Part shown: positions 15,683 to 61,650 of the stretch, piece after piece | Numbering within the stretch: position 1 is the stretch's first letter | Layout: each line of letters opens with the position of its first letter | Sequence record: PZ452595.1 | Length of the DNA: 64,000 bases | Direction: 5' to 3' (one strand) | Source of the DNA: a phage | Made by a program: the position numbers and the translations under genes | The notes under the pieces: generated by a model | The model's input: the letters and a program-made list of their open reading frames with translations, nothing else | What the model was told of the DNA's origin: nothing | The model's database searches: none

Positions 15683-16081
15683 TTATACTCTATTACTAGA
15701 AGCCAGTTGCAGTTTTATCTGCTCAATATCATCAGGGTTATCGATGACCGAAAAGCGTATTTCTACTATCAGAGTATAATCATCATAAACGGGTATTACA
15801 TTAACTGCTAATTTATCAATACGTGGATCATAGTTTCTTACTGCGCTTTCGATGTTACGCTCAACCGTATCAGCAGTAAGAGGAGTCATATTTTCAAAAA
15901 GCTGATCTGATAAATCACATCCAAATTCAGGGTCAAACGGTCTTGAACCTTTTCTTGTTGTAATAATTCCCAAAAGACTGTTTTTAATTGACCTTAATCC
16001 AAGTGATCTGGAAACGTCTTTGTTCCAATCCATTTTCATTTCCGGGTCAATGTCAGAATAAAGCTTATTAATATTTGACAT
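15683..16081 (-). CDS. 25: Baseplate wedge subunit gp25
   Basis: 132 aa, same length as T4 gp25. Confidence 0.9.
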   Translation of the reverse strand: MSNINKLYSDIDPEMKMDWNKDVSRSLGLRSIKNSLLGIITTRKGSRPFDPEFGCDLSDQLFENMTPLTADTVERNIESAVRNYDPRIDKLAVNVIPVYDDYTLIVEIRFSVIDNPDDIEQIKLQLASSNRV

Positions 16082-16707
16082 TATAGTAACTCAAAGAACT
16101 CTTTGAGGCCTCTTATTACGTGAGCATGGGTTTTTCCACACTCTGGACACTTAATTGGAACAGCCAAATAAACAGTAGGCTTTAAAAGCATATCTTTTAT
16201 AGCTACAATATCTGACTCTGTGATGATAGAATATAAATCTTCCAGTTCTTTTTCATTTAAGTCTTCAACTGGAATACTTTCACCGTTAGCATGAATCGTT
16301 TCTATGCATGATACTATCATGTGGGCTATATTTTTATCATCAAAAATTTTAGGGTATCGGAATTTAATTTTAATGTCACCCAGTGTATACCAGAGGTCTT
16401 CTGGTGCATCTATTTGTGTATGTAATAGATTTATATGGGTTGGTATTTCAGTTCCACAGGTGCACTTCCAGGAGTTTTCGTGATTAACTTCTCCAAGAGA
16501 ATGTGCCCATAAATGAATCAACAATAGTTCTGATTCTTGGCGGTTTAAATCTTTTGCATTTGTGCAGTCTTTGATTAGCTTTTTAACAATTACTTCTACG
16601 GAACCATTATTTTTGGCAGTAATAAGTTCTAGATATTCTTTAAGCGTGAATGCGCGACAATTGATTATTTTAGAACCAACTCTCACATCAAAATTGTATT
16701 CATACAT
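16081..16707 (-). CDS. 26: Baseplate hub subunit gp26
   Basis: 208 aa in the T4 gene 26 position. Confidence 0.85.
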
Positions 16708-39243: not shown

Positions 39244-40831
<1,588 letters not shown>

Positions 40832-40838
40832 AATAAAA

Positions 40839-40852
40839 TGGGCCTTGCGGCC
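40839..40852 (-). other. Hairpin (GGGCC-GCAA-GGCCC on the - strand) in the denA leader
   Basis: GC stem between an upstream GGAG and the AUUUUAUU-AUG start of denA; terminator and/or translational structure. Confidence 0.45.
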
Positions 40853-40858
40853 CACTCC

Positions 40859-42037
40859 TTAAAAGTATTTTTTAAAACTCATCATAACTTTATCATCAAC
40901 ATCATTATCAATCTGTGCAACAAGGTAAGATGACAGTTCTACTTCTTGTGGCGCGGATTGAACATTATCAGAATTAAGATATTCACGAATCCAAGGATAC
41001 GGATGTTTAACCGGAGCATCGGTAATTGGGCATGGAAGACCACACTGTTTCATACGAGATACAGTTAAGTAATCAATAAAGCTCCACATGCTATTTGTAT
41101 TTAATCCAGGAACATCGCCGTCTTTAAATAAATGAACTGCCCAATCTTTTTCTTGGCGGTTAACTTCCATGAAAATATCAACTGCTTCTTGTTCACACTC
41201 TTGAGCAATTTTAACCCATTCATCGCCATCAGTGCCAAGTTGAAGTTGACGAATAATATATTGAGTGCCTTTAAGGTGAAGCTGCTCATCACGTGCAATG
41301 AACTTCATAATCTTGGCATTACCTTCCATGATTTCCATGTTTTTATGGAAGTTAAAGGTACATGCGAAAGATACATAAAAACGAATAGCTTCCAATGCGT
41401 TGATTACATGCAAACAGAGGTAAAGAGATTTCATTAGCTCACGCTTCCAATATGTCTCATGCTCAATAGCATCTTCAATAACGTCTTCGTCTGCATTAAT
41501 TTCTTTTTGGTATTCGATATCAGCTTTAGCGTTTTCCCAATAACGAGTTTTAATCAGAACATCATCATAATAACGTCCAATGGATTCAGCACGTTTCATA
41601 ATAGCTTCATCTAATACAATTTCATCAAATACCTTCGATGGATCAGTATAAAGATTTCGCATGATATGTGTATATGAACGGCTGTGAATAGTTTCACTAA
41701 AAGTCCACGTAGCAACCCATGTATCAAGGCTTGGGTCTGAAATTAATGACATAAGTACAGCAGACGGCGCACGACCCTGAATGCTATCCAAAAGTGATTG
41801 ATACTTCAGATTATTAGTAAAAATATTTTGCTGATACTGAGGAAGCTTATTAAACTGTGCAGCATCCATCATCAAGTTTACTTCTTCAGGACGCCAGAAA
41901 AATGATAATTGCTTTTCGGTTAAATCTTCAAAAACTTTATGACGTTGAATATCATAACGCGCAATACCAAGACCTGAACCAAAAAACATAGGTTCTTTTA
42001 AAACATCAACTGGATTTGTATTAAAAACTGTGCTCAT
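40859..42037 (-). CDS. nrdB: Ribonucleotide reductase small subunit, uninterrupted
   Basis: 392 aa continuous ORF with the diiron/tyrosyl-radical family sequence; no intron-sized interruption. Confidence 0.93.
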   Translation of the reverse strand: MSTVFNTNPVDVLKEPMFFGSGLGIARYDIQRHKVFEDLTEKQLSFFWRPEEVNLMMDAAQFNKLPQYQQNIFTNNLKYQSLLDSIQGRAPSAVLMSLISDPSLDTWVATWTFSETIHSRSYTHIMRNLYTDPSKVFDEIVLDEAIMKRAESIGRYYDDVLIKTRYWENAKADIEYQKEINADEDVIEDAIEHETYWKRELMKSLYLCLHVINALEAIRFYVSFACTFNFHKNMEIMEGNAKIMKFIARDEQLHLKGTQYIIRQLQLGTDGDEWVKIAQECEQEAVDIFMEVNRQEKDWAVHLFKDGDVPGLNTNSMWSFIDYLTVSRMKQCGLPCPITDAPVKHPYPWIREYLNSDNVQSAPQEVELSSYLVAQIDNDVDDKVMMSFKKYF

Positions 42038-42063
42038 AAATTTTCCGCTTAGTTAATAGATAG

Positions 42064-42081
42064 TGACTCGTCCATGAGTCA
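42064..42081 (-). other. Hairpin in the nrdA-nrdB intercistronic region
   Basis: tgactc-gtccat-gagtca inverted repeat in a 51-bp intergenic spacer. Confidence 0.35.
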
Positions 42082-42088
42082 AATTATA

Positions 42089-47760: not shown

Positions 47761-48130
47761 TGATTTCGTCTACATTATTTTCGTCAACAATGCAGTGAAT
47801 TTTTGTTACGCCAGAAACCTTGTCTTCGATTTCATCTTCTTCAGAAGTCGGTTCTTTATATTCGCGGAAACAATAAAACTCTTCTTCACGAAGTTCAAAA
47901 TAATCATCACCCATACCATCATCATTATAGATTTCACCATTAGCACAAATGATTTCGGTTACATAATCAAAGCCATCTAAACTTAATATTGATTTAACTT
48001 CAAACCAACCACCATTTTCTTGAATGATGCCGACCATACTAGCATTTGATGAACTAATATCAATGAAAGATTTAATACGATGTGGATTTAACTCGTATTT
48101 TTTGCCGATTTCCATTTTGATTTTCCTCAT
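47729..48130 (-). CDS. Hypothetical acidic protein
   Basis: 133 aa ORF. Confidence 0.5.
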   Translation of the reverse strand: MRKIKMEIGKKYELNPHRIKSFIDISSSNASMVGIIQENGGWFEVKSILSLDGFDYVTEIICANGEIYNDDGMGDDYFELREEEFYCFREYKEPTSEEDEIEDKVSGVTKIHCIVDENNVDEIIELLRKTFKA

Positions 48131-48136
48131 TTTAAT

Positions 48137-48154
48137 AGGGGCTTGATAGCCCCT
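48137..48154 (-). terminator. Hairpin (aggggc-ttgata-gcccct)
   Basis: Inverted repeat between two - strand ORFs. Confidence 0.4.
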
Positions 48155-48160
48155 TGATAA

Positions 48161-60500: not shown

Positions 60501-60842
60501 GTCCGCTCTGATATTCGTGTTAAAAAAGACCTCGTTAAATTTGAAAATGCTTCTGAAAAGCTTTCTAAAATTAACGGTTACACTTATATGCAGAAACGTG
60601 GAACTGACGAAGAAGGTAATCAGAAATGGGAACCTAACGCCGGTTTAATTGCTCAAGAAGTTCAAGCTATTTTACCAGAATTAGTTGAAGGCGACCCGGA
60701 TGGTGAAGCTTTACTTCGTTTGAACTATAACGGTGTAATTGGTTTAAATACAGCTGCAATCAATGAGCATACTGCAGAAATTGCGGAACTTAAATCAGAA
60801 ATTGAAGAACTTAAAGCATTAGTTAAATCATTGTTAAAATAA
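57531..60842 (+). CDS. 37: Long tail fibre distal subunit gp37 with C-terminal intramolecular-chaperone-like domain
   Basis: 1103 aa; last 120 aa (SDIRVKKDL...YTYMQKRG...coiled-coil end) resemble auto-cleaving fibre chaperone domains. Confidence 0.9.
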
Positions 60843-60846
60843 TAAG

Positions 60847-60862
60847 AGGGGCTTCGGCCCCT
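60847..60862 (+). terminator. Hairpin after gene 37 (GGGGC-UUCG-GCCCC)
   Basis: Stem with UUCG tetraloop between gene 37 and the gene 38 SD. Confidence 0.5.
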
Positions 60863-60873
60863 TGGAGGTTTAT

Positions 60874-61650
60874 ATGGCAGTAACAGGACCGTGGGTAGGA
60901 TCGTCTGCAGTAGTTAATACAGGACAAAATTGGATGGGTGGTGCCGCGCAGAGATTGAGAATGGGAATTCCGTTTTGGATGAGTAATATGATAGGTCGAT
61001 CTGTTGAAATAATTCACACGCTTGGAGCAGACCATAACTTCAATGGTCAATGGTTCCGAGATAGATGTTTTGAGGCAGGTAGTGCACCTATAGTGTTTAA
61101 TATCACTGGAGATTTAGTATCATATTCTAAAGATGTTCCTTTATTCTTCATGTATGGAGATACACCCAATGAATATGTTCAGTTGAATATACACGGCGTA
61201 ACGATGTATGGTCGTGGCGGTAATGGCGGTAGCAATAGTCCTGGCTCAGCTGGAGGTCATTGTATTCAAAACGATATTGGTGGGAGACTAAGAATTAATA
61301 ATGGTGGAGCTATTGCAGGCGGCGGTGGCGGCGGTGGCGGCGGATATTATTCTCCTTTTTCACAAATGAGATTGACCTTTGGCGGCGGCGGTGGGCGTCC
61401 GTTTGGTGCACCTGGCGGATCTATTGATATGCAATCAGGAGCGACTGGCGGTACTATTTCTGCACCTGGCTCAGGATCCGTGAATGGTATCTATAATGGT
61501 GGAAACGGTGGTGAAGTAGGTTCCGCGGGAGGTAGATGCAATATTCGCGGTCAAGGATCTGAATATAATGGCGGCGATGCTGGTTATGCCGTCATAGGGT
61601 CCGCTCCAACGTGGATAAATGTTGGAGCAATATATGGTCCAAGAGTATAA
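60874..61650 (+). CDS. 38: T2-type tail fibre adhesin gp38 with glycine-rich motifs
   Basis: Track start is TTG at 60862; the ATG at 60874 with SD GGAGG gives 258 aa; poly-Gly islands ([37 protein letters not shown]) separated by variable segments. Confidence 0.85.

Follow-up and report, generated by a model that had tools for sequence, protein, structure and literature searches.

The junction of nrdB and denA

How do ribosomes reach the start codon of denA when the only good Shine-Dalgarno (SD) sequence ahead of it lies on the far side of a stable hairpin? The question is raised by a 64-kb stretch of DNA, analysed here as a whole and referred to as the window, that belongs to a T-even type phage of the genus Tequatrovirus. 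The nrdB–denA locus of this phage is 99.9% identical to that of phage vB_EcoM_G4507 and 97.4% identical to that of a T4 record, and the gene order on the minus strand is nrdB, denA, rnlA. The list of open reading frames and the nrdB annotation of matching phage records identify nrdB as an intron-free coding sequence for 392 aa (40859..42037, minus strand), which ends in a UAA codon at 40861–40859. The product of denA (40421..40831, minus strand) is endonuclease II, a protein of 136 aa that is supported by the list of open reading frames and by a PHROG endonuclease match (E = 1.9e-65); its AUG codon occupies 40831–40829. The intergenic gap between the nrdB UAA and the denA AUG is 27 nt, so the two genes of the window show neither the stop/start overlap nor the spacing of a few nucleotides that would indicate translational coupling. 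On the other side of nrdB, the gap to nrdA is only 51 nt (42038–42088, minus strand) and holds neither mobE nor nrdB.1, so that the window differs from T4 in this gap as well as in its intron-free nrdB. A weak hairpin, TGACTCATGGACGAGTCA, was listed by a promoter/terminator scanner within this gap, whereas a published comparison describes no terminator in the nrdA–nrdB gap of phages that lack mobE.

Read on the minus strand, the junction is UAC UUU UAA GGAG U GGGCC GCAA GGCCC AUUUUAUU AUG AAA GAA. The order of SD, hairpin, spacer and AUG that a preliminary description had given for this strand is seen in the sequence as described, with some corrections of detail. The SD sequence AAGGAG (40855..40860) overlaps the nrdB stop codon, a feature that the earlier description did not mention, and together with the stop bases it forms UAAGGAG; its GGAG core occupies 40858–40855. 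The hairpin, GGGCC-GCAA-GGCCC (40840..40853), is defined by folding and covariation and consists of five G-C pairs and a GNRA tetraloop. It does follow the GGAG core, as stated earlier, but a single U (U40854) intervenes, and this U can pair with A40839 on the 3' side of the stem to form a sixth pair, which makes a 6-bp helix. The U-rich spacer AUUUUAUU (40832..40839) leads from the hairpin to the AUG and would be the U tract if the hairpin terminates transcription. The distance of 27 nt quoted earlier for SD and start is correct if the count begins at the first G of GGAG and runs up to the A of AUG, but the gap between GGAG and AUG is 23 nt. Even so, this gap exceeds the approximately 15 nt above which an SD is too distant in the linear sequence.

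The folding energy of the core hairpin is −10.0 kcal/mol, or −11.6 kcal/mol with the flanking U-A pair, and the 66-nt context of the hairpin has a z-score of −3.0 against shuffled sequences. The pattern GGGCCN4GGCCC occurs exactly once in the 64 kb of the window, which has roughly 35% G+C; when one mismatch is allowed, there are two matches, against 0.11 expected. The observation at the nrdB–denA junction is real and goes beyond chance. A search of positions 40300–41300 against Rfam at a permissive threshold returned only noise, with L20_leader as the top match at 22 bits versus a gathering score of 58.7.

The upstream SD had been called the only good one, and duplex energies with the 3' end of 16S rRNA agree: UUAAGGAGU reaches −8.7 kcal/mol, versus −3.0 kcal/mol for the best match elsewhere in the leader, which is the AAGG formed by the loop and the 3' arm of the hairpin. 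By such energies, the stretch from the hairpin to the denA AUG holds no second SD-like sequence. The whole hairpin fits into the gap that separates SD from AUG, and without its helix the spacing in the window shrinks to 7–9 nt, inside the workable range of 5–11 nt. The AAGG of the GCAA loop and 3' arm was itself considered as a ribosome-binding site and rejected: at −3.0 kcal/mol it is weak, it is buried in the stem, and it is absent in relatives with a UUCG loop.

Conservation of the junction among related phages

Two DenA scans of viral contigs, combined with GenBank records, yielded 42 usable loci that represent 27 distinct junctions. Among the divergent representatives that were aligned, DenA is 59–79% identical to the protein of the window. 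A comparison with the denA leader of T4, which had been suggested earlier, is uninformative since the T4 junction is identical to that of the window. Likewise, when IMG/VR was scanned by pattern for T4-type junctions whose stems vary, no contigs turned up beyond five that were already in the set.

Nearly all junctions consist of an nrdB stop codon overlapping AAGG(A), 0–4 nt, a hairpin, a U-rich spacer and the AUG, and the layout of SD, hairpin and AUG is present in at least six named genera (Tequatrovirus, Mosigvirus, Jiaodavirus, Bragavirus, Marfavirus and Gualtarvirus). The hairpins of the relatives are G+C-rich and have 4–7 bp; the tetraloop is mostly UUCG, with GCAA or GUAA in the T4 type. 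Stem sequences vary (GGGCC, GGGAC, GGGGC, GGGAGAC, AGGGC and others) with pairing kept. Covariation was evaluated for a 7-pair helix on the A2 alignment, with 500 shuffles and slid controls for reference. In this helix 89.9% of the cells are paired, five of the seven pairs show double-sided change, and 30 cells are compensatory; none of the 500 shuffles matches the observed covariation score, and the slid controls are 23–68% paired. The hairpin is kept by compensatory changes in related phages.

The SD is conserved together with the hairpin. Across the 27 distinct junctions, UAAGG is conserved in at least 70–90% of columns, and in every one of them the strongest anti-SD match (−4.4 to −9.3 kcal/mol) is upstream of the hairpin; in or 3' of the hairpin no match is better than −3.7 kcal/mol. 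As in the window, the relatives provide no alternative SD at the usual distance. A GGAG is present in the T4-type phages, and most relatives carry AAGGAA, AAGGAU, AAGGAC or AAGGU instead. The target of RegB is a GGAG in the initiation region of early genes, which is cleaved by RegB with protein S1 (PMC3014915); the GGAG of the T4-type phages would be a candidate for such cleavage.

The spacing also follows a common pattern. In all 27 junctions the spacer between hairpin and AUG is 6–10 nt by a Watson-Crick definition of the helix. Measured from the GG anchor of the SD, the AUG is 24.7 ± 1.1 nt away (range 22–29 nt), or 9.0 ± 1.6 nt after removal of the helix. The L013 junction has two extra stem pairs compared with its relative L009, so that the total distances are 29 and 25 nt, respectively, and the collapsed distance is 11 nt in both. 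The total length from stop to AUG varies even less than the collapsed length, and this constancy could instead reflect a simple scarcity of insertions and deletions.

In the L028 locus (660–705), whose DenA is 73% identical, hairpin and SD have both been lost, and the stop codon of nrdB shares bases with the start codon of denA (UUAUGA). Because this ATGA overlap stands without hairpin and without SD, denA appears to be expressible by coupling alone. In L046/47, where DenA is 51% identical, the gene is not located beside nrdB and is preceded by a terminator-like hairpin followed by an ordinary SD.

Comparison with the split initiation sites of genes 25 and 38

A hairpin between a distant SD and its start codon has precedents in T4. 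The initiation region of gene 25, at the gene 26–25 junction, is said to have been described by Nivinskas in 1999 and by Malys and Nivinskas in 2009 as one in which 27 nt are reduced to 11 nt. This split ribosome-binding site is also found in the window (16079..16115, minus strand), where it was recognised from scans, from the sequence itself and from a PHROG baseplate wedge subunit match, and it reads UAAGAGG-C-CUCAAAG AGUU CUUUGAG-UUACUAUA-AUG. As in the denA leader, a 4-nt SD core is separated by 1 nt from a hairpin with a 4-nt loop, and 8 nt lead from there to the AUG. Its hairpin is A/U-rich and weaker (−6.4 kcal/mol) than the G+C-rich hairpin of denA (−10 to −11.6 kcal/mol). Furthermore, the gene 25 hairpin presumably lies inside the coding sequence of gene 26 and hence could not serve as a terminator, whereas the denA hairpin is intergenic and has a U tract behind it.

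The T4 gene 37–38 junction, UAAGGAG-A-GGGGC UUCG GCCC..UAAAU-AUG, resembles the denA leader in an overlap of UAA with UAAGGAG, followed by 1 nt, a G+C-rich tetraloop hairpin, a short A/U spacer and the AUG. The intergenic gap is 26 nt at gene 37–38 and 27 nt at nrdB–denA, and the SD is separated from the AUG by 22 nt in gene 38, 23 nt in denA and 27 nt in gene 25. The loop of gene 38 is UUCG, as in most denA relatives, in place of the GCAA of T4-type denA, and gene 38 is a late gene whereas denA is a pre-replicative one. For T4 genes 38 and 25, the hairpin between distant SD and AUG shortens a 22-nt spacing to 5 nt and a 27-nt spacing to 11 nt, respectively; destabilising mutations in these hairpins reduce initiation, the gene 25 structure has been seen in vivo, and the split site of gene 25 is conserved together with its structure among T-even relatives (PMC3014915). 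While bridging in gene 38 has mutational evidence (PMC3014915), denA is placed beside it by sequence and analogy.

In one group of relatives (L022) the nrdB–denA junction, UAAGGAGAGGGCCUUCGGGCCCUUCUGUUAUG, is nearly the same string as the T4 gene 37–38 junction, UAAGGAGAGGGGCUUCGGCCCUUCUAAAUAUG (L063 623–652; T4 159622–159651). The resemblance could be due to a reusable module of stop, SD, hairpin and AUG or to convergence under the same constraints. Gene 38 of the window (60835–60876, plus strand) is of the T2/T6 adhesin type and has UAAGAGG, the hairpin GAGGGGC-UUCG-GCCCCUU and an ordinary GGAGG 5 nt upstream of the AUG; in contrast to its T4 counterpart, this gene can do without bridging.

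A blind scan for such sites was carried out on a composite T4-type genome assembled from T4 1–99,800, the window (about T4 98,504–162,540) and T4 159,000–168,903. A candidate had to be the start of an open reading frame of at least 25 aa with a Watson-Crick hairpin of −5 kcal/mol or lower ending 3–12 nt before it, an anti-SD match of at least −5.5 in strength adjoining the hairpin on its 5' side, and none better than −4 past the loop. Exactly three starts in the composite genome pass: gene 38, gene 25 and denA. A match at 48130 on the minus strand, from a separate first scan for hairpins, was discarded as a wrong start, the real one lying 15 nt downstream with an ordinary SD after the hairpin. 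At this position (48115–48160, minus strand) the hairpin AGGGGCU-AUCA-AGCCCCU is followed by AUG AGG AAA AUC AAA AUG, in which the first AUG is probably not a start and the SD of the second, GAGGAAA, is formed partly by the first codon. With this one included, the hairpins that precede other genes in the window (14399, plus strand; 60874, plus strand; 48115, minus strand) have a normal SD on their 3' side. Since this is the case at these three places and in L046/47, such phages are evidently able to put an SD 3' of a hairpin that is not part of an initiation site.

The earlier proposal that the denA hairpin would fold to bring SD and AUG together is well supported by comparison, both across the 27 distinct junctions and with the geometry of genes 25 and 38. 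On these sequence and analogy grounds, denA is probably the third example, after genes 38 and 25, of the known hairpin-bridged site, and its hairpin has the look of a fixed building element within the ribosome-binding site, not of a switch.

Competing readings, termination and the expression of denA

Several other readings of the junction have to be weighed against bridging. The least probable, to which we give very little credence, is that the true start of denA is the GTG at the SD/stem junction (40855–40853, minus strand), which would give a protein of 144 aa produced by re-initiation 3 nt past the nrdB stop and would make the hairpin coding. This GTG is in frame with denA, the nrdB UAA is 3 nt upstream of it, and the denA CDS of the T4 RefSeq record begins there (NC_000866.4, 137517–137951; L039 3018–3452). 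However, an in-frame NTG at −24 occurs in only five of the 27 distinct junctions, from three lineages (T4 type, L010 type and L044), and is absent or out of frame in the other 22; in several relatives the frame is closed by a stop. The eight extra residues are not conserved, whereas MKEIA/MKDIA is, and the SD abuts the GTG without any spacer. Moreover, the ATG (136 aa) is used by most records and by the PDB 2WSH construct, which begins MKEIATEY. In view of its poor conservation and of the crystal-structure construct, the GTG is probably not the main start; the ATG is the conserved start of denA, although re-initiation after nrdB might yield a minor longer form of DenA. Quite unlikely, in turn, is an inhibitory role, in which an extended helix (GGAGU/AUUUU, CUUUUA/UGAAAG) would hide both SD and AUG, keep the toxic nuclease low, and open only on passage of the ribosomes that translate nrdB, in the manner of T4 e, soc, 49 and I-TevI. 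Those genes have inhibitory hairpins at their initiation regions, with the SD and/or the AUG inside a conserved helix. The likeness to denA is that of an RNA helix at the initiation region, and the predicted minimum free energy fold of the 66-nt denA context (−18 kcal/mol) does pair both SD and AUG. For many relatives folding predicts a low probability of an unpaired SD (median 0.26), and the G's of the SD could form G-U pairs with the U tract in 17–21 of the 27 junctions. Unlike in the e, soc, 49 and I-TevI leaders, however, the covarying helix of denA is confined to the interval from SD to AUG and contains neither of them. Double-sided change is absent from the outer pairs, which are expected wherever a purine run faces a U run, and slid controls reach 62–68% pairing; RNAalifold applied to −55..+25 recovers the core hairpin only. 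These outer G-U and A-U pairs are weak, and an SD/anti-SD duplex of −6 to −9 kcal/mol should displace them. Because the purines of the SD are predicted to pair weakly (G-U, A-U) with the U-rich spacer, the SD could be partly masked; given the lack of double-sided change, the similar slid controls and the RNAalifold result, we take masking as a possible damping effect and not as the function.

Rather unlikely, although less so than masking, is a role of the hairpin solely as a terminator and/or a stabiliser of the nrdB mRNA 3' end, with denA translated without the upstream SD. Ribosomes leaving nrdB would then re-initiate 27 nt downstream, or the A/U-rich spacer would drive initiation, and UAAGGAG would be irrelevant or would merely keep ribosomes near. 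Consistent with this, several records annotate the hairpin and its U tract as a terminator, most relatives have a U-rich spacer, and L028 relies on a pure ATGA overlap with neither SD nor hairpin. In addition, since the nrdB stop is only 5 nt from the stem, terminating nrdB ribosomes must, judging from known ribosome footprints, melt it. On the other hand, the AAGG directly after the stop is conserved despite being non-coding, and adjoining spacer positions vary. The SD is never found 3' of the hairpin at the nrdB–denA junction, yet it is so placed at other hairpins; many relatives that retain hairpin, SD and spacing have only a weak U tract or none; and the geometry is exactly that of two validated bridged sites. 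We lean, with modest confidence, towards the view that the hairpin of 14–16 nt belongs to the denA ribosome-binding site as a conserved structural element and, in the T4-type phages, is also a probable leaky terminator.

The start region of denA is annotated in various ways. An AUG or GUG is found between SD and stem in about seven lineages (for example, L009, L010, L013, L024, L030 and L044); in the A2 alignment these codons are in or out of the denA frame and could be incidental or serve as re-initiation codons after nrdB. In phage 107 (L002 756–758) the denA ribosome-binding site is annotated on the AGG within the hairpin, and the annotation of Morganella phage MP1 (L057 541–1018) is limited to a 44-aa 'endonuclease' fragment located 3' of the hairpin. 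With the GTG of the T4 RefSeq record, the in-hairpin site and the truncated denA, automated annotation misplaces the start of denA or its ribosome-binding site.

The preliminary description had also suggested that the same hairpin acts as the nrdB terminator. This is plausible for the T4-type phages, in which the 6-bp stem is followed by UUUUAUU and the window junction scores positive by a rough terminator rule. By this rough score, however, only 10 of the 27 junctions are positive: the spacer is U-rich in most relatives, but many that keep hairpin, SD and spacing have a poor U tract or lack one, and L032 and L033 have GUAAAGCU or AUAAAGCU where it would stand. The records of G4507 and MP1 label the hairpin a putative terminator, a prediction that is automated or based on MFOLD, and a 'terminator' feature appears under the match in two further GenBank records. 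The denA hairpin was missed by the promoter/terminator scanner, which we take as uninformative because the scanner probably extended the stem into the U tract. The junction does not mark the end of a transcription unit: denA starts 8 nt past the stem, which would make the hairpin at most an internal leaky terminator. Crude consensus patterns for late, middle and early promoters found none between the nrdB start and denA that would serve denA alone. In view of this result and of the unconserved U tract in many relatives, any termination would have to be leaky and could not be efficient; such leaky termination is likely in the T4-type phages. With a U tract that is poor or lacking in many relatives and with denA dependent on read-through, we do not consider termination to be the reason why the hairpin is conserved. 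A MotA-box-like middle promoter candidate, TGCTTCCA-N12-TACTAT (40395..40420, minus strand), was found by pattern scan directly past the denA stop and upstream of rnlA; it would make rnlA transcription independent of read-through from nrdB.

A terminator of this kind has been characterized in the same region of T4. Wilson and Edgell (2009, PMC2790892) described a leaky terminator inside mobE, at which 30–50% of transcripts stop, past which 50–70% of polymerases proceed and behind which a nuclease gene is less expressed; its position, within coding sequence, was mapped by RNase protection and 3' RACE (PMC2790892). It shares with the denA hairpin its short length, a loop of 4 nt and a short run of U residues, and belongs to the same nrd gene cluster. 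The two differ in that the mobE terminator has been mapped and is inside a coding sequence, whereas the denA hairpin sits between SD and AUG and its terminator role is predicted. In T4 time-course omics data, denA RNA is classed as 'middle' and that of nrdA, nrdB and rnlA as 'early', and DenA protein was detected (PMC9697503, supplementary files 4 and 6). The RNA of mobE is likewise 'middle' and that of its upstream neighbours 'early' (PMC9697503). The 'middle' class of denA and mobE is consistent with both genes lying behind leaky terminators.

We found neither an account of the denA leader nor a mapping of 3' ends downstream of nrdB in the searchable literature; older subscription sources fall outside it, and an earlier mention is possible. 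From the junction sequences and the parallel with genes 38 and 25, we infer that ribosomes use the denA SD across the hairpin and that RNA polymerase partially terminates there. In the proposed mechanism, denA would be read from transcripts coming through nrdB, as no promoter of its own was found. The G+C-rich tetraloop hairpin would fold and reduce the 23-nt gap between SD and AUG to about 7–9 nt; the 30S subunit could then pair with the SD and hold the AUG in its P site with the hairpin looped out, as for genes 38 and 25. In the T4-type phages, the hairpin with UUUUAUU would probably also act as a leaky intrinsic terminator and protect the 3' ends of nrdA–nrdB transcripts, and leaky termination would make the denA message scarcer than that of nrdB.

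An extension of this mechanism, which we regard as unlikely and offer as speculation, would link three processes. Because the nrdB stop is only 5 nt from the stem, a ribosome close behind RNA polymerase at the end of nrdB might cover the 5' arm of the hairpin and block the terminator, so that polymerase reads through; after the ribosome leaves, the hairpin would build the denA initiation site. Transcription of denA would thus be gated by translation of nrdB and its translation by the same hairpin, and the module would be reusable among T-even phages, occurring also at gene 37–38.

If bridging is confirmed, denA would be the third T4 gene with a ribosome-binding site assembled by an intervening hairpin and, because its hairpin is intergenic and has a U tract behind it, the first such site whose hairpin could double as a terminator. 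Start-site predictors that require an SD 5–10 nt upstream can be expected to fail on this hairpin-bridged class. The arrangement would represent a compact natural design that provides little of a toxic nuclease beside an abundant enzyme.
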